A DNA stretch of 64,000 bases from positions 14,145,045-14,209,044 of the forward strand of contig NC_092680.1 of assembly GCF_964355755.1 (NCBI RefSeq). Direction: 5' to 3'. Every line of letters begins with the position of its first letter. Position 1 is the first letter of the stretch. The notes under the pieces were generated by a model that was not told where the DNA came from, did not search any database, and was given only the letters and a program-made list of their open reading frames with translations. This DNA is from Antedon mediterranea. Its lineage: Eukaryota > Animalia > Echinodermata. A program made the position numbers and the translations under genes. Below are positions 11,441-45,612 of the stretch, one piece after another.

Positions 11441-11446
11441 TCTAAG

Positions 11447-18146: not shown

Positions 18147-19558
18147 ATGAACAGCCGACACTCAGTAGTCTGGAGGTTTCTGACGGTTTCTATACTAAAC
18201 TATGTAGTATTTGCAAACGGTAAGAGTAATACACTCACAGTGTCATTTTAAAATGTGTTTTATATTTTGAAAAACTTGGCAAAATTACTAAATTTGACAA
18301 TTTATATATATGAATTGAATTTTTTTCTGATTATCGATGCAAACTGCATGCATGAATCTATTAATATAATAATGATATAGGCCTAACGTACATTTTTGAA
18401 AGGTTTTTGTTTTACATGCTTTAGATTATCCAACAAAATGGAACATAGTTTGCAATGCAGTGTTCTAATCTCATCGTATTTGTTTGTTGTCACTCTCTGT
18501 CCATAATTTTAATTTAGGCCTACGTTATAAAATGCAACTTTACAAACTTACTGTACATTGTACATTTCCTTCTATGTCAGATGATTGTCCAGAAGAAGTC
18601 AAACACGGAGAAAGAAATAGTAAGGGTGAAGTGACATGTGACACGGGCTACAACAGAGTAGAATGTAGTACACCAACTCCTGCACCAGCAGGATATGAGG
18701 CGGCGAAATGTGAACTTGGTGGTAAGCGTTATCAAATTCATACTCATGAAAGCCCTTCAGACTTAGGCGGGTAATTTTGTATATATATATATATTTGATT
18801 ATATCAGCAGCGCATTTATTCAACAAGTCTTTTTTTTCAGATTTAGTTTCTCTTGCTGTCGCCGTTGCTTTGATGGTCATCCTCGTTATTGCTTCCATTT
18901 TTATTTTATCCATTATTTTGCGAAGGTAACGTTACACTAGTTTGCAATTATAGTTTTAACATGTATGTGTATTCTGTTTCGATGGAAAATAGAGGTAATT
19001 AAACGATGTCGATATTTATATACTTGCATTGTTATTTGTCAAATTTAAACATTAATTGTTTTAGATAAAACAATCAAATAGAATTAATGTATATACAATA
19101 ATAATCATCATTATCATCATTTGTTCCATAGTCTACATTTTGCATATTATTTTTTATAAGAATAATGTTACATACATCTGGTAATTACTGGTAAAAATGT
19201 TAAAATGCATATTTGCACTGAATCTATATATTCATGATTTTTGTAACAGATTTTGTAATAGAGGAATACGTTCACGTCGGAGAGATTTGACAACAAACTC
19301 AGCTATAGTAGAAGGTGGTTCGGTATTAGAATCAGGGTATGGCTACTACTAATGTTATTTATGTGCGAACAATATTGAGAACATTAACACAATTTTATAT
19401 TCCTAAGTGATTTTGCCAATGTAGTATTCCTGAAATACTTACTTTGGCCTCTATTGTAATTCTTTAGGATTGAAGTGACTGTAGCCAATGATGAACTTTA
19501 TAGAATTCAAGAACCACGCTATGTGTATGAACAACAACTTATATCCACACAAAAATAA
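18147..19558 (+). CDS. Type I membrane protein: signal peptide, single sushi/CCP-like module, TM helix, Tyr-motif cytoplasmic tail (158 aa if read to TAA)
   Basis: Exons 18147-18219 (MNSRHSVVWRFLTVSILNYVVFAN), 18581-18721 (DDCPEEVKHGERNSKGEVTCDTGYNRVECSTPTPAPAGYEAAKCELG, phase 1-1), 18841-18925 (DLVSLAVAVALMVILVIASIFILSIILRR), 19250-19336 (FCNRGIRSRRRDLTTNSAIVEGGSVLESG), 19468-19558 (IEVTVANDELYRIQEPRYVYEQQLISTQK*). All four introns are GT-AG and phases match. Confidence 0.82.
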
Positions 19559-19653
19559 GTTATAATGAGTTTTGCTAAAAGTGTATTGTATCTTTCTCTG
19601 TTTCTTACCTTATGTGAATGCTTATTCTCTTTTTATAATGGTTTTATTGTTAG

Positions 19654-19761
19654 AAATTGTCAACAAGAAGCAGATAATGAAGCCACCGATGGATGTGATG
19701 TTGATGTAACTGACGGAATCCAACTACACCATGCGTACGAAAAATTTATATTGACTCAAAC
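19654..19761 (+). CDS. 108-bp phase 2-2 cytoplasmic exon, copy 1 (NCQQEADNEATDGCDVDVTDGIQLHHAYEKFILTQ)
   Basis: Acceptor ttttattgttag|, donor |gtaagt, open frame; 3' end resembles the previous exon (YEQQLISTQ). Confidence 0.72.
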
Positions 19762-19842
19762 GTAAGTTAATGAACAACTTCCTGGTTTTACCATACGTAT
19801 ATATATTTCTCTCTTGTCTGTATTGTTATTCTTAACGCTTTA

Positions 19843-21279
19843 TTAGGTTATATGCATTATCATGCATATGACCTCTTGATTCTGTCAAAATCTTTGTTTA
19901 TTTATTCTTTCCTTAGCACTATTTTGTCCGTGAATTATCTTGATATCAGTTTCATCTAGCTAAGTCAATTTTTCAGAGTATATTCCTTATGGCCAGGAAT
20001 CGATGTGGTTATGTTTTCACGGTGCGCAATCAAACATTACGCGGTCTACGCGCGATTTAATGAAATCACGTTTGTAATCATATCTTCACAAGCATGAATC
20101 ATTTTTAAACAAAATTTGGTACTCATAAATGTCAGGTCATATTTCATCATATGGCAATACGATTACGTGTGTAGCGCATATAACGCATGCGTACGCGCGC
20201 TTAAAATGTTCAAAATTGTCAGAATTTATTTTTGATGAAATTAGACTACGTTTCAGGCAATTTTAAGCGTTTAAAAAACTACCATGAGTGCAGATTTTTG
20301 CGCGTCAAACGTTAATACGCACTTTTTTTGTCCGATTACTGTTGTATAACCTTTCTTTGATAATATCATCATATTTTATTCACTTTTCAACGCGAAACAG
20401 CGTTATACGAGCAAGTTAACGAGGTAAGTTAACAAAATGGTAAAAATATGCTAAATTTTAAAATTAATATATATCGTTAGAATGCTCGGGAACACCAATT
20501 TTTTATTTCATTTTCTTGAAGTGTATGTATCATATGTATTATTTATTATGAAATTAAGAGAAAAAAAGTTGATTAAGTCATCATTAATGGCATATTAAAT
20601 TTAAAAAAAATTATTTTGACAATCAAACAAATTATAACATTTTCTTAGGCCGAAATAACAAACTTAACATTAACTTTCTTCCTTAAGAAGTTCATATATT
20701 AAAGTTAAAAGTATATAGTTTGACAGTGCATCATTTGTTTACATTTTAAAGATGTCATCATAGTAAAAAATTATAATTCATTGCGGTATGTAATAATCTA
20801 TTTTCACCAAACTGGTTACTGCATAGTAAATACACGGAGGAATTTTTCTACAACTTTTAGTCAGTTGTGTATGGCTCGATGGTCTGTGCTCGTGTCTATG
20901 GCATTCAAGGTACCGAGATCGAGTCTCACCTTGGGAAACGAAATAATATTTTTTTTTATTATCCGTATTGTTTGTTCAAATTTATTTCTTAGTGTATAGA
21001 TTATACACATGATTTATAATGAAATCTAGATAAAAAGTAACTTATGTCTTTATTATTATGTAACAACAAATGTGGTTTATGACATTATACGCATATGGAT
21101 CTTTGATCGGATTGTGATACCAGCTATGGTGTTCGCGTTAGCAAGGTCCTATCATATATTATAAATAATTAAAGATTCTGAGAAAACCAATCAATCAATA
21201 TATCTTTTAAAAATCAATTATCTTTATTTAAATCAATGCATATAACCTATAATTCGTCATAGTGACGAATTAAATCTAG
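19843..21279 (+). mobile_element. HINE (Helentron-type non-autonomous element), variant A, first copy
   Basis: 5' palindrome aggttatatgcattatcatgcatat(g/a)acct; 3' subterminal inverted repeat aatgcatataacct, hairpin aattcgtcatagtgacgaatt, end ctag|tt; no TSD. Confidence 0.8.
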
Positions 21280-23941
21280 TTTATTTATTCTTTCCTTAGC
21301 ACTATTTTGTCCGTGAATTATCTTGATATCAGTTTCATCTATCTAAGTCAATTTTTCAGAGTATATTCCTTATGGCCAGGAATCGATGTGGTTATGTTTT
21401 CACGGTGCGCAATCAATCATTATGCGGTCTACGCGCGATTTAACGAAATCACGTTTGTAATCATATCTTCACAAGCATGAATCACAATTAAACAAAATTT
21501 GGTACTCATAAATGTCAGGTCATATTTCATCATATGGCAATACAATTACGTGCGTAGCGCATATAACGCTTGCGTACGCGCGCTTAAAATGTTCAAAATT
21601 GTCAAAATTTATTTTCGATGAAATTAGAGTACGTTTCAGGCAATTTTAGGCGTTTAAAAAATTGCCATGAGTGCGCAGATTTTTGCCCGATTTCTGTTTT
21701 ACAGTCTTTCTTTAATAATATCATCATATTTGATCCACTTTTCAACTCGAAATTGCGTTATACGAGCACGTCAAAAGTGACAGGCTACGCACGTATAAGT
21801 TAACAAAATGGTGAAAATATGCTAAATTTTAAAATTAATATATATCGTCAGAATGCTGGGGAACACCTATTTTTTTGTTTCATTTTCTTGAAGTGTATGT
21901 ATCATATGTTTGATTTATTATCAAATTAAGAGAACAAAAGTTTATTAAGTCTTCATTAATTGCATATTAAATTTAAAAAAAATTATTTCGACAATCAAAC
22001 AAATTATGACATTTTCTTAGGCCGAAATAACAAACTTAACATTAACTTTCTTTCTTAAGAAGTTCATCATCATTTTTTTACATTTTTAAAGATGTCATCA
22101 TAGTAAATAATTATAATTCATTGCGGTATGTAATAATCTATTTGCACCAAAGTGGTTACTGCATAGTAAATACACAGAGGAATTTTTCTACAACTTTTAG
22201 TCAGTTGTGTATGGCTCGATGGTCTGTGCTCGTGTCTATGGCATTCAAGGTACCGAGATCGAGTCTCACCTTGGGAAACGAAATAAGATTTTTTTTTTTT
22301 ATTATCCGTATTGTTTGTTCAAATTTATTTCTTAGTGTATAGATTATACACATGATTTATAATGAAATCTAGATAAAAAGTAACTTATGTCTTTATTATT
22401 ATGTAACAACAAATGTGGTTTATGACATTATACGCATATGGATCTTTGACCGGATTGTGATACCGGCTAAGGTGTTCGCGTTAGCAAGGTCCTATCATCT
22501 ATATATAAATTATGGTTAATTCTGACATAGGCGAGCACAATGCAAAAACTTCGGTACAAATTTCCGCCTTGGATACCTACCTTATCTATCCGAGATGTAC
22601 CGCGAAACGTAGATTTGATAACATTAGTGTGCACGCCGACGCTATTGTTCCATATTTATATCTTAGGAAGATATTATAAAGAGTTTTTTAACAACATTTA
22701 TGATTTCAACATTGGATTTTCCTCTCAATTTCAATTCTTCCCGGTCAAAGTAATTTCCGGGTTTAAGATAAGTTCACCTTAGTTTCAAATATTTTCTCTC
22801 TTTTATACACAAGGGAGCAGTTAAAATAATAGATTTGACCCTAAAGGTGGCACTTTCCATCAATCAATACAGTGTCCCTTTGGAAGACGAAAAAAAAATT
22901 GGCCATTAATCATAGCCATTTCAGTTTTTTGTTTATTTTAAAACATACCACACTTGTGTGAAGGTACAGTAGTTAAATAATAGGAATTATACTGCAAATT
23001 AATAAAGATCAAATTAAATATACGCCATAAAGAATCAGAATATATTGTGGGGAATAGTATTATAAAATTACATAGGGAGATTTGATAAGACATTTTTCGA
23101 GTGAAATCCCGATAGCTGAGTTTTATTGAGTAAGCTTGCAGGAATAACTGTAGGCTATCTTCCTGTGTCCCGTTAGGACCGAGATGTCTGCCCATGTTGC
23201 AAGCCGTAATGTCTTCTTTCTTGGGCCCACTCTGTCACGGCAGTTAGTTTCAAAAGATGATTAAATTAAATAATGTATTAATAATTATTAGGATGGTATT
23301 CATTTGAATAAACGCCTCTCCAATAAAACATCACTTTGAATAATAACAACCCCCCTCCCCACCCCACAACCCAACTATCTAATAAACGTCCATCCACATA
23401 TTTATAATAACACAATTTTAATATTTGTAGTAGAATTCACCGCACTGTTATCTGCAATTTACCAAGCATTTGTTATTCTTTTTAACCACTTTTCATATCT
23501 ATGAGAGGATTTCATTTGATTATAAATGTTACCATATTATTAGAACTAAAAAATTTAAAATATATCCCTCGAATAAGCAACTCCCTCAAATGACCTCCGC
23601 CTCCCCAAAGGGCCCTACCAAACAATAAAAACTATACTTTAAAATGTTATTAATCATCTAAAACACTTTGAAACAAAGTAGTTTAGTTTTACGAATGTCA
23701 AGCATTTTCAATAATGGTAACCGACAGAAAATGTATAAGGAGAACATTATCATTCCGAGAACCATCGTCTACACTTCCTAGAGGGGGAGCGAGCGAAGCG
23801 AGCTCACCCTCTAGTATATTATAAATAATTACAGATTCTGAGAAAATCAATCAATCAATATATCTTTTAAAAATCAATTATCTTTATTTAAATCAATGCA
23901 TATAACCTATAATTCGTCATATAGTGACGAATTAAATCTAG
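21280..23941 (+). mobile_element. HINE variant B, lacking the first ~54 bp, with nested Helitron
   Basis: Starts right after the CTAG of A at the sequence equivalent to 19897; same 3' structure. Confidence 0.8.
22498..23814 (+). mobile_element. Non-autonomous Helitron (1317 bp), copy 1
   Basis: 5' TC, 3' CTAG, subterminal hairpin gagggggagc..gctcaccctc, inserted between A and T with no TSD; empty site cctatca|tatattata at 42286/42287 and 43948/43949. Confidence 0.92.
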
Positions 23942-23970
23942 TTCTCTTTTTATAATGGTTTTATTGTTAG

Positions 23971-24078
23971 AAATTGTCAACAAGAAGCAGATAATGAAGC
24001 CACCGATGGATGTGATGTTGATGTAACTGACGGAATCCAACTACACCATGCGTACGAAAAATTTATATCGACTCAAAC
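23971..24078 (+). CDS. 108-bp exon, copy 2 (..HAYEKFISTQ)
   Basis: Same splice sites and open frame; TCG instead of TTG. Confidence 0.6.
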
Positions 24079-26846
24079 GTAAGTTAATGAACAACTTCCT
24101 GGTTTTACCATACGTATATATATTTCTCTCTTGTCTGTATTGTTATTCTTAACGCTTTATTAGGTTATATGCATTATCATGCATATGACCTCTTGATTCT
24201 TTCAAAATCTTTGTTTATTTATTCTTTCCTTAGCACTATTTTGTCCGTGAATTATCTTGATATCAGTTTCATCTAGCTAAGTCAATTTTTCAGAGTATAT
24301 TCCTTATGGCCAGGAATCGATGTGGTTATGTTTTCACGGTGCGCAATCAAACATTACGCGGTCTACGCGCGATTTAATGAAATCACGTTTGTAATCATAT
24401 CTTCACAAGCATGAATCATTTTTAAACAAAATTTGGTACTCATAAATGTCAGGTCATATTTCATCATATGGCAATACGATTACGTGTGTAGCGCATATAA
24501 CGCATGCGTACGCGCGCTTAAAATGTTCAAAATTGTCAGAATTTATTTTTGATGAAATTAGACTACGTTTCAGGCAATTTTAAGCGTTTAAAAAACTACC
24601 ATGAGTGCAGATTTTTGCGTGTCAAACGTTAATACGCACTTTTTTTGTCCGATTACTGTTGTATAACCTTTCTTTAATAATATCATCATATTTTATTCAC
24701 TTTTCAACGCGAAACAGCGTTATATGAGCAAGTTAACGAGGTAAGTTAACAAAATGGTAAAAATATGCTAAATTTTAAAATTAATATATATCGTTAGAAT
24801 GCTCGGGAACACCAATTTTTTATTTCATTTTCTTGAAGTGTATGTATCATATGTATGATTTATTATGAAATTAAGAGAAAAAAAGTTGATTAAGTCATCA
24901 TTAATGGCATATTAAATTTAAAAAAAATTATTTTGACAATCAAACAAATTATAACATTTTCTTAGGCCGAAATAACAAACTTAACATTAACTTTCTTCCT
25001 TAAGAAGTTCATATATTAAAGTTAAAAGTATATAGTTTGACAGTGCATCATTTGTTTACATTTTAAAGATGTCATCATAGTAAAAAATTATAATTCATTG
25101 CGGTATGTAATAATCTATTTGCACCAAACTGGTTACTGCATAGTAAATACACGGAGGAATTTTTCTACAACTTTTAGTCAGTTGTGTATGGCTCGATGGT
25201 CTGTGCTCGTGTCTATGGCATTCAAGGTACCGAGATCGAGTCTCACCTTGGGAAACGAAATAATATTTTTTTTTATTATCCGTATTGTTTGTTCAAATTT
25301 ATTTCTTAGTGTATAGATTATACACATGATTTATAATGAAATCTAGATAAAAAGTAACTTATGTCTTTATTATTATGTAACAACAAATGTGGTTTATGAC
25401 ATTATACGCATATGGATCTTTGATCGGATTGTGATACCAGCTATGGTGTTCGCGTTAGCAAGGTCCTATCATATATTATAAATAATTAAAGATTCTGAGA
25501 AAACCAATCAATCAATATATCTTTTAAAAATCAATTATCTTTATTTAAATCAATGCATATAACCTATAATTCGTCATAGTGACGAATTAAATCTAGTTTA
25601 TTTATTCTTTCCTTAGCACTATTTTGTCCGTGAATTATCTTGATATCAGTTTCATCTATCTAAGTCAATTTTTCAGAGTATATTCCTTATGGCCAGGAAT
25701 CGATGTGGTTATGTTTTCACGGTGCGCAATCAATCATTATGCGGTCTACGCGCGATTTAACGAAATCACGTTTGTAATCATATCTTCACAAGCATGAATC
25801 ACAATTAAACAAAATTTGGTACTCATAAATGTCAGGTCATATTTCATCATATGGCAATACAATTACGTGCGTAGCGCATATAACGCTTGCGTACGCGCGC
25901 TTAAAATGTTCAAAATTGTCAAAATTTATTTTCGATGAAATTAGAGTACGTTTCAGGCAATTTTAGGCGTTTAAAAAATTGTCATGAGTGCGCAGATTTT
26001 TGCCCGATTTCTGTTTTACAGTCTTTCTTTAATAATATCATCATATTTGATCCACTTTTCAACTCGAAATTGCGTTATACGAGCACGTCAAAAGTGACAG
26101 GCTACGCACGTATAAGTTAACAAAATGGTGAAAATATGCTAAATTTTAAAATTAATATATATCGTCAGAATGCTGGGGAACACCTATTTTTTGTTTCATT
26201 TTCTTGAAGTGTATGTATCATATGTTTGATTTATTATCAAATTAAGAGAACAAAAGTTTATTAAGTCTTCATTAATTGCATATTAAATTTAAAAAAAATT
26301 ATTTCGACAATCAAACAAATTATGACATTTTCTTAGGCCGAAATAACAAACTTAACATTAACTTTCTTTCTTAAGAAGTTCATATATTAAAGTTAAAAGT
26401 ATATAGTTTGACAGTGCATCATTTTTTTACATTTTTAAAGATGTCATCATAGTAAAAAATTATAATTCATTGCGGTATGTAATAATCTATTTGCACCAAA
26501 GTGGTTACTGCATAGTAAATACACAGAGGAATTTTTCTACAACTTTTAGTCAGTTGTGTATGGCTCGATGGTCTGTGCTCGTGTCTATGGCATTCAAGGT
26601 ACCGAGATGGAGTCTCACCTTGGGAAACGAAATAAGATTTTTTTTTTTTATTATCCGTATTGTTTGTTCAAATTTATTTCTTAGTGTATAGATTATACAC
26701 ATAATTTATAATGAAATCTAGATAAAAAGTAACTTATGTCTTTATTATTATGTAACAACAAATGTGGTTTATGACATTATACGCATATGGATCTTTGACC
26801 GGATTGGGATACCGGCTAAGGTGTTCGCGTTAGCAAGGTCCTATCA

Positions 26847-28163
26847 TCTATATATAAATTATGGTTAATTCTGACATAGGCGAGCACAATGCAAAAACTT
26901 CTCTACAAATCTCCGCCTTGGATACCTACCTTATCTATCCGAGATGTACCGCGAAACGTAGATTTGATAACATTAGTGTGCACGCCGACGCTATTGTTCC
27001 ATATTTATATCTTAGGAAGATATTATAAAGAGTTTTTTAACAACATTTATGATTTCAACATTGGATTTTCCTCTCAATTTCAATTCTTCCCGGTCAAAGT
27101 AATTTCCGGGTTTAAGATAAGTTCACCTTAGTTTCAAATATTTTCTCTCTTTTATACACAAGGGAGCAGTTAAAATAATAGATTTGACCCTAAAGGTGGC
27201 ACTTTCCATCAATCAATACAGTGTCCCTTTGGAAGACGAGAAAAAAATTGGCCATTAATCATAGCCATTTCAGTTTTTTGTTTATTTTAAAACATACCAC
27301 ACTTGTGTGAAGGTACAGTAGTTAAATAATAGGAATTATACTGCAAATTAATAAAGATCAAATTAAATATACGCCATAAAGAATCAGAATATATTGTGGG
27401 GAATAGTATTATAAAATTACATAGGGAGATTTGATAAGACATTTTTCGAGTGAAATCCCGATAGCTGAGTTTTATTGAGTAAGCTTGCAGGAATAACTGT
27501 AGGCTATCTTCCTGTGTCCCGTTAGGACCGAGATGTCTGCCCATGTTGCAAGCCGTAATGTCTTCTTTCTTGGGCCCACTCTGTCACGGCAGTTAGTTTC
27601 AAAAGATGATTAAATTAAATAATGTATTAATAATTATTAGGATGGTATTCATTTGAATAAACGCCTCTCCAATAAAACATCACTTTGAATAATAACAACC
27701 CCCCTCCCCACCCCACAACCCAACTATCTAATAAACGTCCATCCACATATTTATAATAACACAATTATAATATTTGTAGTAGAATTCACCGCACTGTTAT
27801 CTGCAATTTACCAAGCATTTGTTATTCTTTTTTACCACTTTTCATATCTATGAGAGGATTTCATTTGATTATAAATGTTACCATATTATTAGAACTAAAA
27901 AATTTAACATATATCCCTCGAATAAGCAACTCCCTCAAATGACCTCCGCCTCCCCAAAGGGCCCTACCAAACAATAAAAACTATACTTTAAAATGTTATT
28001 AATCATCTAAAACACTGTGAAACAAAGTAGTTTAGTTTTACGAATGTCAAGCATTTTCAATAATGGTAACCGACAGAAAATGTATAAGGAGAACATTATC
28101 ATTCCGAGAACCATCGTCTACACTTCCTAGAGGGGGAGCGAGCGAAGCGAGCTCACCCTCTAG
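26847..28163 (+). mobile_element. Non-autonomous Helitron, copy 2
   Basis: Same termini and site. Confidence 0.92.
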
Positions 28164-28319
28164 TATATTATAAATAATTACAGATTCTGAGAAAATCAAT
28201 CAATCAATATATCTTTTAAAAATCAATTATCTTTATTTAAATCAATGCATATAACCTATAATTCGTCATATAGCGACGAATTAAATCTAGTTCTCTTTTT
28301 ATAATGGTTTTATTGTTAG

Positions 28320-28427
28320 AAATTGTCAACAAGAAGCAGATAATGAAGCCACCGATGGATGTGATGTTGATGTAACTGACGGAATCCAACTACACCATGC
28401 GTACGAAAAATTTATATCGACTCAAAC
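28320..28427 (+). CDS. 108-bp exon, copy 3
   Basis: Intact AG/GT and open frame. Confidence 0.6.
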
Positions 28428-31001
28428 GTAAGTTAGTGAACAACTTCCTGGTTTTACCATACGTATATATATTTCTCTCTTGTCTGTATTGTTATTCTTA
28501 ACGCTTTATTAGGTTATATGCATTATCATGCATATAACCTCTTGATTCTGTCAAAATCTTTGTTTATTTATTCTTTCCTTAGCACTATTTTGTCCGTGAA
28601 TTATCTTGATATCAGTTTCATCTAGCTAAGTCAATTTTTCAGAGTATATTCCTTATGGCCAGGAATCGATGTGGTTATGTTTTCACGGTGCGCAATCAAA
28701 CATTATGATGAAATTAGACTACGTTTCAGGCAATTTTAAGCGTTTAAAAAACTACCATGTGTGCAGATTTTTGCGTGTCAAACGTTAATACGCACTTTTT
28801 TTGTCCGATTACTGTTGTATAACCTTTCTTTAATAATATCATCATATTTTATTCACTTTTCAACGCGAAACAGCGTTATACGAGCAAGTTAACGAGGTAA
28901 GTTAACAAAATGGTAAAAATATGCTAAATTTTAAAATTAATATATATCGTTAGAATGCTCGGGAACACCAATTTTTTATTTCATTTTCTTGAAGTGTATG
29001 TATCATATGTATGATTTATTATGAAATTAAGAGAAAAAAAGTTGATTAAGTCATCATTAATGGCATATTAAATTTAAAAAAAATTATTTTGACAATCAAA
29101 CAAATTATAACATTTTCTTAGGCCGAAATAACAAACTTAACATTAACTTTCTTCCTTAAGAAGTTCATATATTAAAGTTAAAAGTATATAGTTTGACAGT
29201 GCATCATTTGTTTACATTTTAAAGATGTCATCATAGTAAAAAATTATAATTCATTGCGGTATGTAATAATCTATTTGCACCAAACTGGTTACTGCATAGT
29301 AAATACACGGAGGAATTTTTCTACAACTTTTAGTCAGTTGTGTATGGCTCGATGGTCTGTGCTCGTGTCTATGGCATTCAAGGTACCGAGATCGAGTCTC
29401 ACCTTGGGAAACGAAATAATATTTTTTTTTATTATCCGTATTGTTTGTTCAAATTTATTTCTTAGTGTATAGATTATACACATGATTTATAATGAAATCT
29501 AGATAAAAAGTAACTTATGTCTTTATTATTATGTAACAACAAATTTGGTTTATGACATTATACGCATATGGATCTTTGATCGGATTGTGATACCAGCTAT
29601 GGTGTTCGCGTTAGCAAGGTCCTATCATATATTATAAATAATTAAAGATTCTGAGAAAACCAATCAATCAATATATCTTTTAAAAATCAATTATCTTTAT
29701 TTAAATCAATGCATATAACCTATAATTCGTCATAGTGACGAATTAAATCTAGTTTATTTATTCTTTCCTTAGCACTATTTTGTCCGTGAATTATCTTGAT
29801 ATCAGTTTCATCTATCTAAGTCAATTTTTCAGAGTATATTCCTTATGGCCAGGAATCGATGTGGTTATGTTTTCATGGTGCGCAATCAATCATTATGCGG
29901 TCTACGCGCGATTTAACGAAATCACGTTTGTAATCATATCTTCACAAGCATGAATCACAATTAAACAAAATTTGGTACTCATAAATGTCAGGTCATATTT
30001 CATCATATGGCAATACAATTACGTGCGTAGCGCATATAACGCTTGCGTACGCGCGCTTAAAATGTTCAAAATTGTCAAAATTTATTTTCGATGAAATTAG
30101 AGTACGTTTCAGGCAATTTTAGGCGTTTAAAAAATTGCCATGAATGCGCAGATTTTTGCCCGATTTCTGTTTTACAGTCTTTCTTTAATAATATCATCAT
30201 ATTTGATCCACTTTTCAACTCGAAATTGCGTTATACGAGCACGTCAAAAGTGACAGGCTACGCACGTATAAGTTAACAAAATGGTGAAAATATGCTAAAT
30301 TTTAAAATTAATATATATCGTCAGAATGCTGGGGAACACCTATTTTTTGTTTCATTTTCTTGAAGTGTATGTATCATATGTTTGATTTATTATCAAATTA
30401 AGAGAACAAAAGTTTATTAAATCTTCATTAATTGCATATTAAATTTAAAAAAAATTATTTCGACAATCAAACAAATTATGACATTTTCTTAGGCCGAAAT
30501 AACAAACTTAACATTAACTTTCTTTCTTAAGAAGTTCATATATTAAAGTTAAAAGTATATAGTTTGACAGTGCATCATTTTTTTACATTTTTAAAGATGT
30601 CATCATAGTAAAAAATTATAATTCATTGCGGTATGTAATAATCTATTTGCACCAAAGTGGTTACTGCATAGTAAATACACAGAGGAATTTTTCTACAACT
30701 TTTAGTCAGTCGTGTATGGCTCGATGGTCTGTGCTCGTGTCTATGGCATTCAAGGTACCGAGATCGAGTCTCACCTTGGGAAACGAAATAAGATTTTTTT
30801 TTTTATTATCCGTATTGTTTGTTCAAATTTATTTCTTAGTGTATAAATTATACACATGATTTATAATGAAATCTAGATAAAAAGTAACTTATGTCTTTAT
30901 TATTATGTAACAACAAATGTGGTTTATGACATTATACGCATATGGATCTTTGACCGGATTGTGATACCGGCTAAGGTGTTCGCGTTAGCAAGGTCCTATC
31001 A

Positions 31002-32474: not shown

Positions 32475-32582
32475 AAATTGTCAACAAGAAGCAGATAATG
32501 AAGCCACCGATGGATGTGATGTTGATGTAACTGACGGAATCCAACTACACCATGCGTACGAAAAATTTATATCGACTCAAAC
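32475..32582 (+). CDS. 108-bp exon, copy 4
   Basis: Intact AG/GT and open frame. Confidence 0.6.
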
Positions 32583-35101: not shown

Positions 35102-35257
35102 TATATTATAAATAATTACAGATTCTGAGAAAATCAATCAATCAATATATCTTTTAAAAATCAATTATCTTTATTTAAATCAATGCATATAACCTATAAT
35201 TCGTCATATAGTGACGAATTAAATCTAGTTCTCTTTTTATAATGGTTTTATTGTTAG

Positions 35258-35365
35258 AAATTGTCAACAAGAAGCAGATAATGAAGCCACCGATGGATGT
35301 GATGTTGATGTAACTGACGGAATCCAACTACACCATGCGTACGAAAAATTTATATCGACTCAAAC
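35258..35365 (+). CDS. 108-bp exon, copy 5
   Basis: Intact AG/GT and open frame. Confidence 0.6.
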
Positions 35366-37908
35366 GTAAGTTAATGAACAACTTCCTGGTTTTACCATAC
35401 GTATATATATTTCTCTCTTGTCTGTATTGTTATTCTTAACGCTTTATTAGGTTATATGCATTATCATGCATATAACCTCTTGATTCTGTCAAAATCTTTG
35501 TTTATTTATTCTTTCCTTAGCACTATTTTGTCCGTGAATTATCTTGATATCAGTTTCATCTAGCTAAGTCAATTTTTCAGAGTATATTCCTTATGGCCAG
35601 GAATCGATGTGGTTATGTTTTCACGGTGCGCAATCAAACATTATGATGAAATTAGACTACGTTTCAGGCAATTTTAAGCGTTTAAAAAACTACCATGTGT
35701 GCAGATTTTTGCGTGTCAAACGTTAATACGCACTTTTTTTGTCCGATTACTGTTGTATAACCTTTCTTTAATAATATCATCATATTTTATTCACTTTTCA
35801 ACGCGAAACAGCGTTATACGAGCAAGTTAACGAGGTAAGTTAACAAAATGGTAAAAATATGCTAAATTTTAAAATTAATATATATCGTTAGAATGCTCGG
35901 GAACACCAATTTTTTATTTCATTTTCTTGAAGTGTATGTATCATATGTATGATTTATTATGAAATTAAGAGAAAAAAAGTTGATTAAGTCATCATTAATG
36001 GCATATTAAATTTAAAAAAAATTATTTTGACAATCAAACAAATTATAACATTTTCTTAGGCCGAAATAACAAACTTAACATTAACTTTCTTCCTTAAGAA
36101 GTTCATATATTAAAGTTAAAAGTATATAGTTTGACAGTGCATCATTTGTTTACATTTTAAAGATGTCATCATAGTAAAAAATTATAATTCATTGCGGTAT
36201 GTAATAATCTATTTGCACCAAACTGGTTACTGCATAGTAAATACACGGAGGAATTTTTCTACAACTTTTAGTCAGTTGTGTATGGCTCGATGGTCTGTGC
36301 TCGTGTCTATGGCATTCAAGGTACCGAGATCGAGTCTCACCTTGGGAAACGAAATAATATTTTTTTTTTATTATCCGTATTGTTTGTTCAAATTTATTTC
36401 TTAGTGTATAGATTATACACATGATTTATAATGAAATCTAGATAAAAAGTAACTTATGTCTTTATTATTATGTAACAACAAATTTGGTTTATGACATTAT
36501 ACGCATATGGATCTTTGATCGGATTGTGATACCAGCTATGGTGTTCGCGTTAGCCAGGTCCTATCATATATTATAAATAAATAAAGATTCTGAGAAAACC
36601 AATCAATCAATATATCTTTTAAAAATCAATTATCTTTATTTAAATCAATGCATATAACCTATAATTCGTCATAGTGACGAATTAAATCTAGTTTATTTAT
36701 TCTTTCCTTAGCACTATTTTGTCCGTGAATTATCTTGATATCAGTTTCATCTATCTAAGTCAATTTTTTAGAGTATATTCCTTATGGCCAGGAATCGATG
36801 TGGTTATGTTTTCACGGTGCGCAATCAATCATTATGCGGTCTACGCGCGATTTAACGAAATCACGTTTGTAATCATATCTTCACAAGCATGAATCACAAT
36901 TAAACAAAATTTGGTACTCATAAATGTCAGGTCATATTTCATCATATGGCACTACAATTACGTGCGTAGCGCATATAACGCTTGCGTACGCGCGCTTAAA
37001 ATGTTCAAAATTGTCAAAATTTATTTTCGATGAAATTAGAGTACGTTTCAGGCAATTTTAGGCGTTTAAAAAATTGCCATGAGTGCGCAGATTTTTGCCC
37101 GATTTCTGTTTTACAGTCTTTCTTTAATAATATCATCATATTTGATCCACTTTTCAACTCGAAATTGCGTTATACGAGCACGTCAAAAGTGACAGGCTAC
37201 GCACGTATAAGTTAACAAAATGGTGAAAATATGCTAAATTTTAAAATTAATATATATCGTCAGAATGCTGGGGAACACCTATTTTTTTGTTTCATTTTCT
37301 TGAAGTGTATGTATCATATGTTTGATTTATTATCAAATTAAGAGAACAAAAGTTTATTAAGTCTTCATTAATTGCATATTAAATTTAAAAAAGATTATTT
37401 CGACAATCAAACAAATTATGACATTTTCTTAGGCCGAAATAACAAACTTAACATTAACTTTCTTTCTTAAGAAGTTCATCATCATTTTTTTACATTTTTA
37501 AAGATGTCATCATAGTAAATAATTATAATTCATTGCGGTATGTAATAATCTATTTGCACCAAAGTGGTTACTGCATAGTAAATACACAGAGGAATTTTTC
37601 TACAACTTTTAGTCAGTTGTGTATGGCTCGATGGTCTGTGCTCGTGTCTATGGCATTCAAGGTACCGAGATCGAGTCTCACCTTGGGAAACGAAATAAGA
37701 TTTTTTTTTTTATTATCCGTATTGTTTGTTCAAATTTATTTCTTAGTGTATAGATTATACACATGATTTATAATGAAATCTAGATAAAAAGTAACTTATG
37801 TCTTTATTATTATGTAACAACAAATGTGGTTTATGACATTATACGCATATGGATCTTTGACCGGATTGTGATACCGGCTAAGGTGTTCGCGTTAGCAAGG
37901 TCCTATCA

Positions 37909-39256
37909 TCTATATATAAATTATGGTTAATTCTGACATAGGCGAGCACAATGCAAAAACTTCGGTACAAATCTCCGCCTTGGATACCTACCTTATCTAT
38001 CCGAGATGTACCGCGAAACGTAGATTTGATAACATTAGTGTGCACGCCGACGCTATTGTTCCATATTTATATCTTAGGAAGATATTATAAAGAGTTTTTT
38101 AACAACATTTATGATTTCAACATTGGATTTTCCTCTCAATTTCAATTCTTCCCGGTCAAAGTAATTTCCGGGTTTAAGATAAGTTCACCTTAGTTTCAAA
38201 TATTTTCTCTCTTTTATACACAAGGGAGCAGTTAAAATAATAGATTTGACCCTAAAGGTGGCACTTTCTATCAATCAATACAGTGTCCCTTTGGAAGACG
38301 AAAAAAAAATTGGCCATTAATCATAGCCATTTCAGTTTTTTGTTTATTTTAAAACATACCACACTTGTGTGAAGGTACAGTAGTTAAATAATAGGAATTA
38401 TACTGCAAATTAATAAAGATCAAATTAAATATACGCCATAAAGAATCAGAATATATTGTGGGGAATAGTATTATAAAATTACATAGGGAGATTTGATAAG
38501 ACATTTTTCGAGTGAAATCCCGATAGCTGAGTTTTATTGAGTAAGCTTGCAGGAATAACTGTAGGCTATCTTCCCGTGTCCCGTTAGGACCGAGATGTCT
38601 GCCCATGTTGCAAGCCGTAATGTCTTCTTTCTTGGGCCCACTCTGTCACGGCAGTTAGTTTCAAAAGATGATTAAATTAAATAATGTATTAATAATTATT
38701 AGGATGGTATTCATTTGAATAAACGCCTCTCCAATAAAACATCACTTTGAATAATAACAACCCCCCTCCCCACCCCACAACCCAACTATCTAATAAACGT
38801 CCATCCACATATTTATAATAACACAATTATAATATTTGTAGTAGAATTCACCGCACTGTTATCTGCAATTTACCAAGCATTTGTTATTCTTTTTTACCAC
38901 TTTTCATATCTATGAGAGGATTTCATTTGATTATAAATGTTACCATATTATTAGAACTAAAAAATTTAACATATATCCCTCGAATAAGCAACTCCCTCAA
39001 ATGACCTCCGCCTCCCCAAAGGGCCCTACCAAACAATAAAAACTATACTTTAAAATGTTATTAATCATCTAAAACACTGTGAAACAAAGTAGTTTAGTTT
39101 TACGAATGTCAAGCATTTTCAATAATGGTAACCGACAGAAAATGTATAAGGAGAACATTATCATTCCGAGAACCATCGTCTACACTTCCTAGAGGGGGAG
39201 CGAGCGAAGCGAGCTCACCCTCGAGGGGGAGCGAGCGAAGCGAGCTCACCCTCTAG
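37909..39256 (+). mobile_element. Non-autonomous Helitron, copy 5, with duplicated 31-bp terminal hairpin
   Basis: gagggggagcgagcgaagcgagctcaccctc occurs twice in tandem at 39192-39253. Confidence 0.92.
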
Positions 39257-39412
39257 TATATTATAAATAATTACAGATTCTGAGAAAATCAATCAATCAA
39301 TATATCTTTTAAAAATCAATTATCTTTATTTAAATCAATGCATATAACCTATAATTCGTCATATAGTGACGAATTAAATCTAGTTCTCTTTTTATAATGG
39401 TTTTATTGTTAG

Positions 39413-39520
39413 AAATTGTCAACAAGAAGCAGATAATGAAGCCATCGATGGATGTGATGTTGATGTAACTGACGGAATCCAACTACACCATGCGTACGAA
39501 AAATTTATATCGACTCAAAC
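39413..39520 (+). CDS. 108-bp exon, copy 6 (T>I variant)
   Basis: Intact AG/GT; ACC>ATC. Confidence 0.6.
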
Positions 39521-42442
39521 GTAAGTTAATGAACAACTTCCTGGTTTTACCATACGTATATATATTTCTCTCTTGTCTGTATTGTTATTCTTAACGCTTT
39601 ATTAGGTTATATGCATTATCATGCATATAACCTCTTGATTCTGTCAAAATCTTTGTTTATTTATTCTTTCCTTAGCACTATTTTGTCCGTGAATTATCTT
39701 GATATCAGTTTCATCTAGCTAAGTCAATTTTTCAGAGTATATTCCTTATGGCCAGGAATCGATGTGGTTATGTTTTCACGGTGCGCAATCAAACATTACG
39801 CGGTCTACGCGCGATTTAATGAAATCACGTTTGTAATCATATCTTCACAAGCATGAATCATTTTTAAACAAAATTTGGTACTCATAAATGTCAGGTGATA
39901 TTTCATCATATGGCAATACGATTACGTGTGTAGCGCATATAACGCATGCGTACGCGCGCTGAAATGTTCAAAATTGTCAGAATTTATTTTTGATGAAATT
40001 AGACTACGTTTCAGGCAATTTTAAGCGTTTAAAAAACTACCATGAGTGCAGATTTTTGCGTGTCAAACGTTAATACGCACTTTTTTTGTCCGATTACTGT
40101 TGTATAACCTTTCTTTAATAATATCATCATATTTTATTCACTTTTCAACGCGAAACAGCGTTATACGAGCAAGTTAACGAGGTAAGTTAACAAAATGGTA
40201 AAAATATGCTAAATTTTAAAATTAATATATATCGTTAGAATGCTCGGGAACACCAATTTTTTAATTCATTTTCTTGAAGTGTATGTATCATATGTATGAT
40301 TTATTATGAAATTAAGAGAAAAAAAGTTGATTAAGTCATCATTAATGGCATATTAAATTTAAAAAAAATTATTTTGACAATCAAACAAATTATAACATTT
40401 TCTTAGGCCGAAATAACAAACTTAACATTAACTTTCTTCCTTAAGAAGTTCATATATTAAAGTTAAAAGTATATAGTTTGACAGTGCATCATTTGTTTAC
40501 ATTTTAAAGATGTCATCATAGTAAAAAATTATAATTCATTGCGGTATGTAATAATCTATTTGCACCAAACTGGTTACTGCATAGTAAATACACGGAGGAA
40601 TTTTTCTACAACTTTTAGTCAGTTGTGTATGGCTCGATGGTCTGTGCTCGTGTCTATGGCATTCAAGGTACCGAGATCGAGTCTCACCTTGGGAAACGAA
40701 ATAATATTTTTTTTTATTATCCGTATTGTTTGTTCAAATTTATTTCTTAGTGTATAGATTATACACATGATTTATAATGAAATCTAGATAAAAAGTAACT
40801 TATGTCTTTATTATTATGTAACAACAAATGTGGTTTATGACATTATACGCATATGGATCTTTGATCGGATTGTGATACCAGCTATGGTGTTCGCGTTAGC
40901 AAGGTCCTATCATATATTATAAATAAATAAAGATTCTGAGAAAACCAATCAATCAATATATCTTTTAAAAATCAATTATCTTTATTTAAATCAATGCATA
41001 TAACCTATAATTCGTCATAGTGACGAATTAAATCTAGTTTATTTATTCTTTCCTTAGCACTATTTTGTCCGTGAATTATCTTGATATCAGTTTCATCTAT
41101 CTAAGTCAATTTTTCAGAGTATATTCCTTATGGCCAGGAATCGATGTGGTTATGTTTTCACGGTGCGCAATCAATCATTATGCGGTCTACGCGCGATTTA
41201 ACGAAATCACGTTTGTAATCATATCTTCACAAGCATGAATCACAATTAAACAAAATTTGGTACTCATAAATGTCAGGTCATATTTCATCATATGGCAATA
41301 CAATTACGTGCGTAGCGCATATAACGCTTGCGTACGCGCGCTTAAAATGTTCAAAATTGTCAAAATTTATTTTCGATGAAATTAGAGTACGTTTCAGGCA
41401 ATTTTAGGCGTTTAAAAAATTGCCATGAGTGCGCAGATTTTTGCCCGATTTCTGTTTTACAGTCTTTCTTTAATAATATCATCATATTTGATCCACTTTT
41501 CAACTCGAAATTGCGTTATACGAGCACGTCAAAAGTGACAGGCTACGCACGTATAAGTTAACAAAATGGTGAAAATATGCTAAATTTTAAAATTAATATA
41601 TATCGTCAGAATGCTGGGGAACACCTATTTTTTGTTTCATTTTCTTGAAGTGTATGTATCATATGTTTGATTTATTATCAAATTAAGAGAACAAAAGTTT
41701 ATTAAGTCTTCATTAATTGCATATTAAATTTAAAAAAAATTATTTCGACAATCAAACAAATTATGACATTTTCTTAGGCCGAAATAACAAACTTAACATT
41801 AACTTTCTTTCTTAAAAAGTTCATATATTAAAGTTAAAAGTATATAGTTTGACAGTGCATCATTTTTTTACATTTTTAAAGATGTCATCATAGTAAAAAA
41901 TTATAATTCATTGCGGTATGTAATAATCTATTTGCACCAAAGTGGTTACTGCATAGTAAATAGACAGAGGAATTTTTCTACAACTTTTAGTCAGTTGTGT
42001 ATGGCTCGATGGTCTGTGCTCGTGTCTATGGCATTCAAGGTACCGAGATCGAGTCTCACCTTGGGAAACGAAATAAGATTTTTTTTTTTATTATCCGTAT
42101 TGTTTGTTCAAATTTATTTCTTAGTGTATAGATTATACACATGATTTATAATGAAATCTAGATAAAAAGTAACTTATGTCTTTATTATTATGTAACAACA
42201 AATGTGGTTTATGACATTATACGCATATGGATCTTTGACCGGATTGTGATACCGGCTAAGGTGTTCGCGTTAGCAAGGTCCTATCATATATTATAAATAA
42301 TTACAGATTCTGAGAAAATCAATCAATCAATATATCTTTTAAAAATCAATTATCTTTATTTAAATCAATGCATATAACCTATAATTCGTCATATAGTGAC
42401 GAATTAAATCTAGTTCTCTTTTTATAATGGTTTTATTGTTAG

Positions 42443-42550
42443 AAATTGTCAACAAGAAGCAGATAATGAAGCCACCGATAGATGTGATGTTGATGTAACT
42501 GACGGAATCCAACTACACCATGCGTACGAAAAATTTATATCGACTCAAAC
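42443..42550 (+). CDS. 108-bp exon, copy 7 (G>R variant)
   Basis: Intact AG/GT; GGA>AGA. Confidence 0.6.
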
Positions 42551-44104
42551 GTAAGTTATTGAACAACTTCCTGGTTTTACCATACGTATATATATTTCTC
42601 TCTTGTCTGTATTGTTATTCTTAACGCTTTATTAGGTTATATGCATTATCATGCATATAACCTCTTGATTCTGTCAAAATCTTTGTTTATTTATTCTTTC
42701 CTTAGCACTATTTTGTCCGTGAATTATCTTGATATCAGTTTCATCTAGCTAAGTCAATTTTTCAGAGTATATTCCTTATGGCCAGGAATCGATGTGGTTA
42801 TGTTTTCACGGTGCGCAATCAAACATTACGCGGTCTACGCGCGATTTAATGAAATCACGTTTGTAATCATATCTTCACAAGCATGAATCATTTTTAAACA
42901 AAATTTGGTACTCATAAATGTCAGGTCATATTTCATCATATGGCAATACGATTACGTGTGTAGCGCATATAACGCATTCGTACGCGCGCTTAAAATGTTC
43001 CAAATTGTCAGAATTTATTTTTGATGAAATTAGACTACGTTTCAGGCAATTTTAAGCGTTTAAAAAACTACCATGAGTGCAGATTTTTGCGCGTCAAACG
43101 TTAATACGCACTTTTTTTGTCCGATTACTGTTGTATAACCTTTCTTTAATAATATCATCATATTTTATTCACTTTTCAACGCGAAACAGCGTTATACGAG
43201 CAAGTTAACAAGGTAAGTTAACAAAATGGTAAAAATATGCTAAATTTTAAAATTAATATATATCGTCAGAATGCTGGGGAACACCAATTTTTTATTTCAT
43301 TTTCTTGAAGTGTATGTATCATATGTTTGATTTATTATCAAATTAAGAGAACAAAAGTTTATTAAATCTTCATTAATTGCATATTAAATTTAAAAAAAAT
43401 TATTTCGACAATCAAACAAATTATGACATTTTCTTAGGCCGAAATAACAAACTTAACATTAACTTTCTTTCTTAAGAAGTTCATATATTAAAGTTAAAAG
43501 TATATAGTTTGACAGTGCATCATTTTTTTACATTTTTAAAGATGTTATCATAGTAAAAAAATTATAATTCATTGCGGTATGTAATAATCTATTTGCACCA
43601 AAGTGGTTACTGCATAGTAAATACACAGAGGAATTTTTCTACAACTTTTAGTCAGTTGTGTATGGCTCGATGGTCTGTGCTCGTGTCTATGGCATTCAAG
43701 GTACCGAGATCGGGTCTCACCTTGGGAAACGAAATAAGATTTTTTTTTTTTATTATCCGTATTGTTTGTTCAAATTTATTTCTTAGTGTATAGATTATAC
43801 ACATGATTTATAATGAAATCTAGATAAAAAGTAACTTATGTCTTTATTATTATGTAACAACAAATGTGGTTTATGACATTATACGCATATGGATCTTTGA
43901 CCGGATTGTGATACCGGCTAAGGTGTTCGCGTTAGCAAGGTCCTATCATATATTATAAATAATTACAGATTCTGAGAAAATCAATCAATCAATATATCTT
44001 TTAAAAATCAATTATCTTTATTTAAATCAATGCAAATAACCTATAATTCGTCATATAGTGACGAATTAAATCTAGTTCTCTTTTTATAATGGTTTTATTG
44101 TTAG

Positions 44105-44212
44105 AAATTGTCAACAAGAAGCAGATAATGAAGCCACCGATGGATGTGATGTTGATGTAACTGACGGAATCCAACTACACCATGCGTACGAAAAATTTAT
44201 ATCGACTCAAAC
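44105..44212 (+). CDS. 108-bp exon, copy 8
   Basis: Intact AG/GT and open frame. Confidence 0.6.
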
Positions 44213-45612
44213 GTAAGTTAATGAACAACTTCCTGGTTTTACCATACGTATATATATTTCTCTCTTGTCTGTATTGTTATTCTTAACGCTTTATTAGGTT
44301 ATATGCATTATCATGCATATAACCTCTTGATTCTGTCAAAATCTTTGTTTATTTATTCTTTCCTTAGCACTATTTTGTCCGTGAATTATCTTGATATCAG
44401 TTTCATCTAGCTAAGTCAATTTTTCAGAGTATATTCCTTATGGCCAGGAATCGATGTGGTTATGTTTTCACGGTGCGCAATCAAACATTACGCGGTCTAC
44501 GCGCGATTTAATGAAATCACGTTTGTAATCATATCTTCACAAGCATGAATCATTTTTAAACAAAATTTGGTACTCATAAATTTCAGGTCATATTTCATCA
44601 TATGGCAATACGATTACGTGTGTAGCGCATATAACGCATGCGTACGCGCGCTTAAAATGTTCAAAATTGTCAGAATTTATTTTTGATGAAATTAGACTAC
44701 GTTTCAGGCAATTTTAAGCGTTTAAAAAACTACCATGAGTGCAGATTTTTGCGCGTCAAACGTTAATACGCACTTTTTTTGTCCGATTACTGTTGTATAA
44801 CCTTTCTTTAATAATATCATCATATTTTATTCACTTTTCAACGCGAAACAGCGTTATACGAGCAAGTTAACGAGGTAAGTTAACAAAATGGTAAAAATAT
44901 GCTAAATTTTAAAATTAATATATATCGTTAGAATGCTCGGGAACACCATTTTTTTATTTCATTTTCTTGAAGTGTATGTATCATATGTATGATTTATTAT
45001 GAAATTAAGAGAAAAAAAGTTGATTAAGTCATCATTAATGGCATATTAAATTTAAAAAAAATTATTTTGACAATCAAACAATTTATAACATTTTCTTAGG
45101 CCGAAATAACAAACTTAACATTAACTTTCTTCCTTAAGAAGTTCATATATTAAAGTTAAAAGTATATAGTTTGACAGTGCATCATTTAAAAAAATTTTTA
45201 AAGATGTCATCATAGTAAAACATTATAATTCATTGCGGTATGTAATAATCTATCTGCACCAAAGTGGTTACTGCATAGTAAATACACTGAGGAATTTTTC
45301 CATAACTTTTAGTCAGTTGTGTATGGCTCGATGGTCTGAGCTCGTGTCTATGGCATTCAAGGTACCGAGATCGAGTCTCATCTTGGGAAACGAAATAAGA
45401 TTTTTTTTATTATCCGTATTGTTTGTTCAAATTTATTTCTTAGTGTATAGATTATACACATGATTTACCTCCGCCAAGGAGGTATATGTAATCTGTCTGT
45501 TTGTTACTTGGCAAAAAAGAATTTTGCCAAGTATAGTATTCACTTTATTTGTATGTATGTTTGTATGTTTGTATGTTTGTTACTTGGCCAAATTGAAAAT
45601 TGGCCAAGTATG

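Follow-up and report, generated by a model that had tools for sequence, protein, structure and literature searches.

On balance, we favor the explanation that the window (the whole stretch of DNA that was analysed, 64,000 nucleotides from the feather star Antedon mediterranea) carries a likely chimeric copy of a small predicted membrane-protein gene of a likely crinoid family, in which exon 6 together with 110 bp of flanking sequence was brought to eight copies, likely by an adjacent rolling-circle-type element. The donor of exon 5 is broken just upstream, and the exon-6 copies are therefore likely passengers. The gene itself is a real spliced gene and encodes a putative single-pass membrane protein of small size. 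Its first five exons and the broken donor are listed here.

18147..18219, + strand: exon 1, with the ATG, a predicted signal peptide and a phase-1 donor; aligns to the N-terminus of XP_071964835.1 (P0001)
18581..18721, + strand: exon 2, phase 1-1; ectodomain with 4 Cys at spacing 16/8/14
18841..18925, + strand: exon 3, spliced in run X8; predicted transmembrane helix (KD19 3.24) with RR after it
19250..19336, + strand: exon 4, 87 bp, phase 2-2; the tail begins here and is unrelated to the P0001 tail
19468..19554, + strand: exon 5, 87 bp, phase 2-2, encoding x-V-Y-E-Q-Q-L-I-S-T-Q; older homologue of exon 6
19555..19558, + strand: broken exon-5 donor and in-frame TAA; A where other runs have G

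The splice sites of exons 1-4 are canonical, the encoded N-terminus is hydrophobic and the transmembrane segment is strong, in agreement with the signal peptide and membrane span of the original prediction. Its "sushi-like" ectodomain found no support, as a Pfam search of all six exons returned 0 families at E<=1. A sushi (CCP) domain has four Cys and a Trp preceding the last Cys. The ectodomain, a single 141-bp exon encoding 46 aa, lacks Trp, its Cys spacing is 16/8/14, and Pfam gave no family over the P0001 ectodomain; the assignment is not supported by sequence. A single-sequence structure model has pLDDT 61, and neither fold nor PDB searches had a significant match (E 2.5, Z 3.1 and sequence E 0.35 at best). 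An EGF-like domain is not supported either, since such a domain has six Cys in EGF spacing and exon 2 has only four, with no Pfam EGF match. An Atlas feature search with P0001 residues 24-130 gave EGF-like clusters at 0.80-0.86, which is a lead only. The 12 phmmer matches of exon 2 comprise P0001, ten Cys-free repeats and one weak 31% match; the 11 other than P0001 (the ten being apparently bacterial surface-protein repeats) were dismissed as summed weak matches.

Exons 1-3 match the Antedon mediterranea protein XP_071964835.1, with 93% identity over exon 2, and they alone matched when P0001 was used in tblastn against the window. This protein and its relative in Anneissia japonica (P0002) have the signal, ectodomain (93%) and transmembrane exons in common with the window gene. 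The 320-aa P0001 tail, in contrast, is unrelated to the tail of the window gene, carries conserved Tyr motifs of its own (GLYQSM and VYAQV) and is 51% identical to P0002. The family consists of expressed crinoid membrane proteins in which one ectodomain is joined to either of two unrelated Tyr-bearing tails, and the window copy likely belongs to it. On the best reading, this chimeric receptor-like family is lineage-specific. Because exons 1-3 match a protein whose own Anneissia-conserved tail differs from the tail here, exon shuffling would have joined them to the new tail, before the split of organisms A and B; contigs of organism B (records 11, 12, 18 and 19) are continuous across exon 3, intron 3 and exon 4.

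How this tail is spliced can be followed in X8, a single RNA-like run from an individual other than the window source. Low-coverage DNA, a reading of X8 taken from depth ratios, was rejected, as the run has four joints at predicted introns that are absent from the three other runs compared; none of the matching runs listed by the run search is recorded as RNA. Exon 1 is without cover in X8, which is evidence neither way. In record 27, exons 3, 4, 5 and 6 are joined at the predicted introns and are followed by a different, exon-6-like exon 7. This contig has 1, 1 and 2 other letters than the window in exons 4, 5 and 6, respectively, and P0001-type letters in exon 3, which marks it as another allele or a near paralogue; record 28 has the same splicing pattern for a paralogue. 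The RNA evidence on tail splicing comes from haplotypes other than that of the window, which counts against our explanation. The first 29-30 letters of exon 7 are known, from RNA alone. Exons 5 and 6 align with a score of 87 (top of 1000 shuffles, 83), and exons 5, 6 and 7 are older homologues of one another. Since the tail splices 4>5>6>7 in another individual and exons 5, 6 and 7 are alike, tandem duplication of exons had already built it at an earlier time. The idea of a tail of repeated symmetric Tyr exons is supported by these three homologous exons. By motif resemblance, the Tyr motifs of exons 5 and 6 are putative phospho-Tyr/SH2-docking sites; Y-x-x-hydrophobic is also a sorting-signal pattern.

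The original prediction was of a five-exon gene followed by the copies, which could add up to 288 aa. In the window, the exon-5 donor is AT, not GT (19555), and a TAA follows at 19556-19558. Read-through past exon 5 stops at codon 159, giving a product of 158 aa, and because exon 5 reads into this TAA, the 158-aa end cannot simply gain 288 aa. All listed depth at 19555 is G in runs X1, X2, X4, X5 and X7 (5/5 DNA-like runs, representing 3 samples from 2 studies). The cryptic donor at 19525, which is in frame, was rejected, as it agrees with only 4/9 consensus positions. The introns flanking exon 5 are short (131 and 99 bp), and intron retention is plausible where a donor is broken and the flanking introns are short. 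Both exon-7 starts, searched with <=3 mismatches, gave 0 matches in the window, including the 19.8 kb after the array, in line with the earlier remark that no terminal exon lies downstream. The empty-site flank search gave 1 match, at chance level. Given the AT donor, the stop in frame behind it and the lack of an exon-7 start in the last 19.8 kb, the gene would mainly yield a truncated protein of 158 aa or a transcript subject to decay, and exon-5-skipping isoforms would be minor at most.

Certain observations count against our explanation. Because contigs drop minority variants, a consensus error may account for the A at 19555, or GT alleles may bear the array as well. Exon 7 may sit beyond 64000. 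The X4 flank contig has a depth of 891, compared with 114-493 for the other listed low-copy gene contigs of that run, which is compatible with amplification in the X4 sample, depth being no copy number. Contig depth was rejected as a measure of copy number, as X4/X1 ratios for the same or overlapping contigs vary ~3- to 18-fold.

The array and the exon-6 copies within it are arranged as follows.

19625..45467, + strand: whole array, 8 units of 4317, 4349, 4155, 2783, 4155, 3030, 1662 and 1392 bp (last truncated)
19625..19842, + strand: host flank present in every unit, 218 bp (exon 6 with the 29 bp of intron 5 that precede it and the first 81 bp of intron 6)
19654..19761, + strand: exon 6 copy 1, Leu variant
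19843..21279, + strand: first full non-autonomous rolling-circle-type element, with 5' TT, subterminal inverted repeat with 5' hairpin, 3' subterminal repeat, hairpin and CTAG
22498..23814, + strand: nested canonical-type non-autonomous Helitron, A/TC ... hairpin CTAG/T (slashes mark the element borders), 5 copies
23971..24078, + strand: exon 6 copy 2, 108 bp
28320..28427, + strand: exon 6 copy 3, 108 bp
32475..32582, + strand: exon 6 copy 4, 108 bp
35258..35365, + strand: exon 6 copy 5, 108 bp
39413..39520, + strand: exon 6 copy 6, Ile variant
42443..42550, + strand: exon 6 copy 7, Arg variant
44105..44212, + strand: exon 6 copy 8, 108 bp
45188..45467, + strand: array end, ~280 bp, matching neither internal element type and cut off by another repeat

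All eight exon-6 copies are 108 bp long and of phase 2-2; each has AG/GT borders, is open in frame and encodes HAYEKF, and Leu, Ile and Arg distinguish copies 1, 6 and 7, exactly as first described. No ninth exon-6 homologue was found by blastn or tblastn of the window, and a protein search with the exon-6 frame gave no candidate, which is weak evidence.

The most serious alternative is that the array is a working tail-length variant, with exon 5 skipped or its donor intact on array alleles and 1-8 copies of exon 6 spliced in, which would multiply the Tyr motifs. This is the model of the original prediction once exon 5 is corrected for, and we give it a clearly lower probability than our preferred explanation. 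Skipping of exon 5 stays in frame, such that exons 1-4 joined to the 8 copies encode 417 aa without a stop inside, and every copy has a strong donor (8/9 consensus positions), read-through of which ends in a stop; these features count against the passenger explanation. Moreover, the natural tail is already made of repeated homologous exons. In organism B, exon-6-like sequence is found on 3-5 contigs versus 2 at the exon-5 end, and from these contigs exon-6-type duplication seems to recur. However, both X8 contigs over exon 6 (2/2, from another individual) go on to a different exon and not to a second exon 6. The broken donor between two short introns makes retention plausible, only 29 bp of acceptor intron is left in copies 2-8, and AATAAA sites (2-7) occur in 7/8 of the stretches downstream of a copy. 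The intactness of the copies is uninformative on function because the youth of the array alone predicts it (P 0.56-0.85 for all 8 under neutrality), and 9/10 listed differences to a paralogous exon 6 change the residue, near the neutral expectation of ~81%. The unchanged Tyr codon among those differences was rejected as a signal of constraint, as it has a chance of ~0.7 (hand arithmetic). With the exon-5 donor dead, the idea that copy number or splicing tunes the number of phospho-Tyr sites is not supported here. A broader proposal, which we find slightly more doubtful still, is that the cytoplasmic tail of a chimeric crinoid receptor family grows by repeated tandem copying of symmetric H-x-Y-E exons and that a rolling-circle element is caught in this act on the present haplotype, that exon-5-skipping transcripts would carry 1-8 Tyr copies, and that transposon copy number would set signalling valency between individuals.

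The origin of the array from a rolling-circle transposon, as the original prediction had it, is upheld by the element termini and by the position of the extra copies: 7/7 of them start exactly after the hairpin-CTAG end of the element. Twelve such ends are present in the array; the neighbour is host flank at 7 of them and one internal position at the other 5, compared with 0-1 hairpin-CTAG sites in each of 10 shuffled windows. The element lies 81 bp 3' of exon 6, and its exact CTAG end joins an A/T site (between A and T) 29 bp 5' of exon 6, where the 218-bp host flank begins; run X5 has an empty-site contig for this junction. The 5' repeat at 19844 shares 13 bp with the 3' repeat at 21237, and this match recurs in the other element copies; the 5' hairpin region has -11.8 kcal/mol and the 3' hairpin 10 bp, and no stop-to-stop frame in the array is >102 aa. 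The element sequence has very high depth in all four runs compared. With its subterminal inverted repeats, 5' inverted repeat, 3' stem-loop and no coding capacity, the element has the features of a non-autonomous Helentron (HINE/DINE-1); since it is inserted at A/T with a CTAG end (X5 empty-site contig, flank junction) and not at TT, we class it only as rolling-circle type with mixed ends. The nested element (starts at 22498, 26847, 31002, 33785 and 37909) has the 5' TC that is a criterion for canonical Helitrons, a 3' hairpin with CTAG and an A/T target without target duplication, and its empty site is present in a-type copies. The last ~280 bp of the array has 12 private letters (5 in one tract), whereas each of the 12 other copies has 1-5 per ~840 bp, and by its letters it belongs to a third type of element. 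The tandem array is young; divergence among units 1-6 is 0.22-0.57%. An exon-free array at 57998-63889 has the same fixed-end tandem pattern.

On our preferred explanation, a transposase acting in trans would have made the CTAG-to-flank junction, a step for which only two independent junctions are the evidence, and rolling-circle copying with unequal exchange would then have multiplied the unit. An origin of the unit without a transposase, through ordinary duplication in tandem (by repair or replication slippage) and crossing-over between unequal partners, appears unlikely. The two internal element copies form a/b mosaics in units 4 and 7, and the shared deletions show stepwise exchange, as this model would have it, but both junction types begin exactly after the CTAG of the element, and the host junction at A/T is an insertion signature of Helitrons and proto-Helentrons. 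An assembly artefact, in the array as such or in its number of copies, is very improbable. In its favor, 19624/19625 is spanned without a break by contigs of 3 samples, and no loose end at 19625 appears for any run among the rows listed (24 of 40 and 24 of 477). Against it, this ancestral junction is also in the window, as copy 1, and mis-expansion would not create units of 7 different lengths with deletions in common and with substitutions both private and shared.

Related systems are known. [quoted passage not shown] DINE-1 prefers TT targets (PMC4067079). Here the amplified host DNA lies 5' of the element and was kept in place as an intragenic tandem array. Rolling-circle-type DINE-1/DNAREP1 repeats of Drosophila adjoin duplicated or chimeric genes; the cases described are whole or dispersed duplicates, whereas one internal symmetric exon is in tandem here (PMC3359341, PMC2211543). 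Tandem Helitron concatemers, head-to-tail and partly truncated, are attributed to rolling-circle replication in work cited in PMC5148889 and PMC11934779; the window unit differs in that a coding exon of the host and another Helitron, nested in it, are part of the repeat. The fester/FcoR families of Botryllus are single-pass proteins that vary in copy number and recombine ectodomains with tails; each tail has several Tyr motifs, and stops from intron retention alter it (PMC12582321). The window gene is likewise that of a predicted invertebrate single-pass protein with a Tyr-motif tail. FcoRs have three Ig-like domains along with one sushi domain and include ITIM (I/L/VxYxxI/L/V) and hemITAM ([ED]3xYxxL) motifs, as given in PMC12582321, whereas the window ectodomain, from one 141-bp exon, has 46 aa and 4 Cys. 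By eye, the exon 5 and exon 6 motifs fit neither pattern (exon 7 was covered for its first 29-30 letters only), and the comparison found no sequence relation to Botryllus FcoR and no allorecognition role for the window protein.

Even if the copies are passengers, the window shows at base resolution how an element of rolling-circle type multiplied, in place, an internal coding exon in its 5' flank. Should transcripts with several copies turn up, a transposon would directly set the number of motifs in a receptor at this locus. That the event befell a gene already bearing older exon duplications of the same type suggests a possible route to tails with repeated motifs.

The 108-bp exon 6 was found eight times on the + strand by a six-frame scan and an exact search of the window.

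Starts 19654, 23971, 28320, 32475, 35258, 39413, 42443 and 44105, + strand: exon 6 copies 1-8, 108 bp each (exact search)

As originally predicted, all eight copies are intact, with an AG 5′ and GTAAGT 3′, phase 2-2 and an open frame, and each codes for HAYEKF together with an acidic segment in which 8 of 35 residues are D/E and one is K/R. The copies differ by three substitutions, S>L in copy 1, T>I in copy 6 and G>R in copy 7, the variants named in that prediction. Upstream of the array, exons 1-4 have canonical splice sites and comprise a hydrophobic N-terminus, a four-Cys segment, a TM helix (KD19 hydrophobicity 3.24) and, as exon 4, a phase 2-2 exon of 87 bp. Exon 5 has the same length when measured to the point homologous with the exon 6 donor. 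At this donor position the window has AT in place of GT, and a TAA closes the frame after residue 158. Hence, the five-exon gene as first described ends before the exon 6 copies and does not continue into them as had been proposed.

In each array unit, 218 bp of host flank (19625-19842) precede a non-coding element that is present once or twice. This element has a 5′ and a 3′ hairpin, a 13-bp subterminal inverted repeat and CTAG, a layout that agrees with that of DINE-1/HINE in PMC4067079. An empty-site contig in X5, a DNA-like run, sets the element start at 19843, and the termini and insertion site that follow from this (TT at the 5′ end, CTAG at the 3′ end, A|T) are those described for proto-Helentron-Pi in the same paper. 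The hairpin-CTAG ends, the subterminal inverted repeat and the empty site thus bear out the rolling-circle-transposon array. Five units also contain a nested Helitron of canonical type (A|TC ... CTAG|T). Seven of the 12 hairpin-CTAG ends in the array adjoin host flank at the A|T site 29 bp 5′ of exon 6, and the other five adjoin an internal position roughly 55 bp into the element; in ten shuffled windows, the number of such sites was 0-1 per window. The 12 joins trace to two independent junctions and, because both sit at the exact element end, the sequence favors a join that would have been made by a transposase. Divergence is 0.22-0.57% for units 1-6 and 1.3-2.4% for units 7 and 8. Shared deletions, together with the a/b mosaic structure of units 4 and 7, show that unequal exchange followed and speak against an assembly artefact. 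As for the array in other individuals, the unit boundary is crossed by unbroken contigs in three samples, with no loose end there among the matches listed; one X4 contig over the host flank is unusually deep. A related element forms another, older tandem array at 57998-63889, whose hairpin-CTAG ends (59579, 61099 and 62591) all adjoin internal positions; the fixed-end pattern is the same and no host exon was noticed.

Under neutrality, all eight copies would be intact with a probability of 0.56-0.85 at the observed divergence, so intactness is uninformative on use; three of three changes being replacements has a neutral probability of 0.52.

At position 19555, 5/5 DNA-like runs (X1, X2, X4, X5 and X7; three samples, two studies) have only G in the depth listed, although contigs drop minority variants and all-G contigs are compatible with an A allele in the same samples. 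The RNA-like run X8 splices at this position. Given both observations, the A in the window either arose as a derived change or is an error of the consensus. Neither exon 7 start seen in X8 matches the window at ≤3 mismatches, although 19.8 kb lie past the last copy, in agreement with the original statement that no terminal exon was found downstream; exon 7 may lie beyond position 64000. The last element copy ends abruptly at 45467, and its final 280 bp carry 12 letters of neither internal type (5 in one tract), whereas each of the other 12 copies has 1-5 such letters in about 840 bp. Past the array are other repeats, some clearly older. This foreign-type end, the cut at 45467 and the repeats beyond suggest that the array exchanged with an outside copy and became separated from the 3′ exons of the gene. 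Other elements in the window are as follows.

45613-49218, - strand: 5′-truncated LINE with a poly(A) tail, a 10-bp target duplication and two long frames (RVT_1, E 8e-36; zf-RVT)
54822-57790, + strand: decayed endonuclease/RT-type LINE, several frames (frame and profile searches)
965-11447: about 10.5 kb between 360-bp inverted repeats (90% alike)
8320-9186, - strand: integrase-core frame within 965-11447 (PF24764, E 2e-69)

The first LINE sits inside another repeat, starting about 45465, that cuts the array. Region 965-11447, which also has broken frames on the + strand, is likely a DNA transposon with cargo.

X8, whose label "RNA?" is a guess, represents one sample from one study; it has four joints at predicted introns that are absent from X2, X5 and X7 and was therefore treated as spliced cDNA. 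Its record 27 (372 nt, depth 6.3) has exons 3, 4, 5 and 6 spliced in order, followed by 29 letters of a different exon, and differs from the window by 1, 1 and 2 letters in exons 4, 5 and 6. Since its exon 3 carries letters of the XP_071964835.1 type, this record represents another allele or a near paralogue, not the haplotype of the window. Record 28 (depth 16.5), from a paralogue with 11 differences in exon 6, is likewise spliced into a different exon. By eye, 14/19 first letters agree between the exon 7 and exon 6 starts in both records, and the exon 5-exon 6 alignment scores 87 against a maximum of 83 among 1000 shuffles. An H-x-Y-E motif is present in exons 5 and 6, with Y in place of the H in exon 5 of the window. 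Exon similarity and X8 splicing together indicate that older symmetric exons, diverged from one another, make up the natural tail. The predicted tail of repeated Tyr exons therefore holds for the homologous exons 5, 6 and 7 but is not supported for the copy number, as both X8 contigs over exon 6 have one exon 6 and then exon 7. At 19734-19745, paralogous and organism-B forms (X5, X7 and X8) read H-E-Y-E-Q-I, and the H-A-Y-E-K-F of the window is thus less widespread among the runs compared. The deepest X8 contig over exon 2 (record 25, 18566-18717) has exon 2 spliced to exon 3 in the XP_071964835.1 form, with intron-like letters before exon 2. In organism B, one of the two source organisms of the runs, an X7 contig at 19779 has letters resembling the exon 5 end 18 bp past exon 6, hinting at further tail-exon duplications; one contig (runs X5 and X7) has a 26-bp palindromic insertion and a short duplication in intron 5 (19560-19565).

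The ectodomain had been called sushi-like, a description that is not supported: Pfam returned no family for 6/6 exons searched, exon 2 is without Trp, and a low-confidence structure model was unmatched in fold searches. An Atlas search points weakly to EGF-like proteins (0.86), as a lead only. Spacing within the central Cys pair, 8 residues, is that of EGF, but only four Cys are present. Among five candidates, the exon 2 search retrieved a single protein, XP_071964835.1 (P0001; Antedon mediterranea, 442 aa, 93% identity); phmmer against 1.84 billion proteins gave 12 matches, of which the other 11 were not accepted. Window exons 1-3 align with the signal, ectodomain and TM regions of P0001, whose 320-aa tail has no match anywhere in the window. 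Because this tail is 51% identical to an Anneissia japonica protein, the TM exon was probably joined to it ancestrally, and the window gene is likely a chimera. The P0001 match also makes Antedon or a close crinoid the likely source of the window. The two tails have the Tyr motifs GLYQSM, VYAQV and EGYGEE in common; the Anneissia model begins within the TM segment and is probably incomplete. Organism-B contigs run from exon 3 into exon 4, and the chimeric arrangement is therefore common to both organisms. Eight runs contain part of the stretch, and six of them were compared (X1, X2, X4, X5, X7 and X8); most exons are covered by several diverged contigs in the DNA-like runs; hence paralogues or divergent alleles exist.

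The feature is real, and parts of it resemble known systems: gene duplication adjoining DINE-1 elements (PMC4067079, PMC3359341, PMC2211543), tandem Helitron concatemers (PMC5148889, PMC11934779) and families of invertebrate receptors in which Tyr tails are swapped or spliced variably (PMC12582321). The window gene is without the domains and motifs of these families. A literature search, weak in that subscription papers were mostly outside it, returned no account of the crinoid family or of in-place rolling-circle amplification of a receptor-tail exon.

We consider it reasonably probable that the element behind exon 6 multiplied this exon as a passenger on the haplotype of the window, and that the broken exon 5 donor would lead to read-through to the 158-aa product, or to decay. 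A lengthened tail carrying exon 6 copies is unlikely, even though skipping of exon 5 stays in frame (417 aa with eight copies), any exon 6 copy could terminate the protein by donor read-through, and exon-6-like sequence is on more organism-B contigs than exon 5. Passenger multiplication would concern this haplotype; normal alleles likely encode a single-pass protein whose ectodomain is short and Cys-rich and whose acidic tail has a few Tyr motifs, which, by analogy, may serve in phosphorylation, SH2 docking or sorting.
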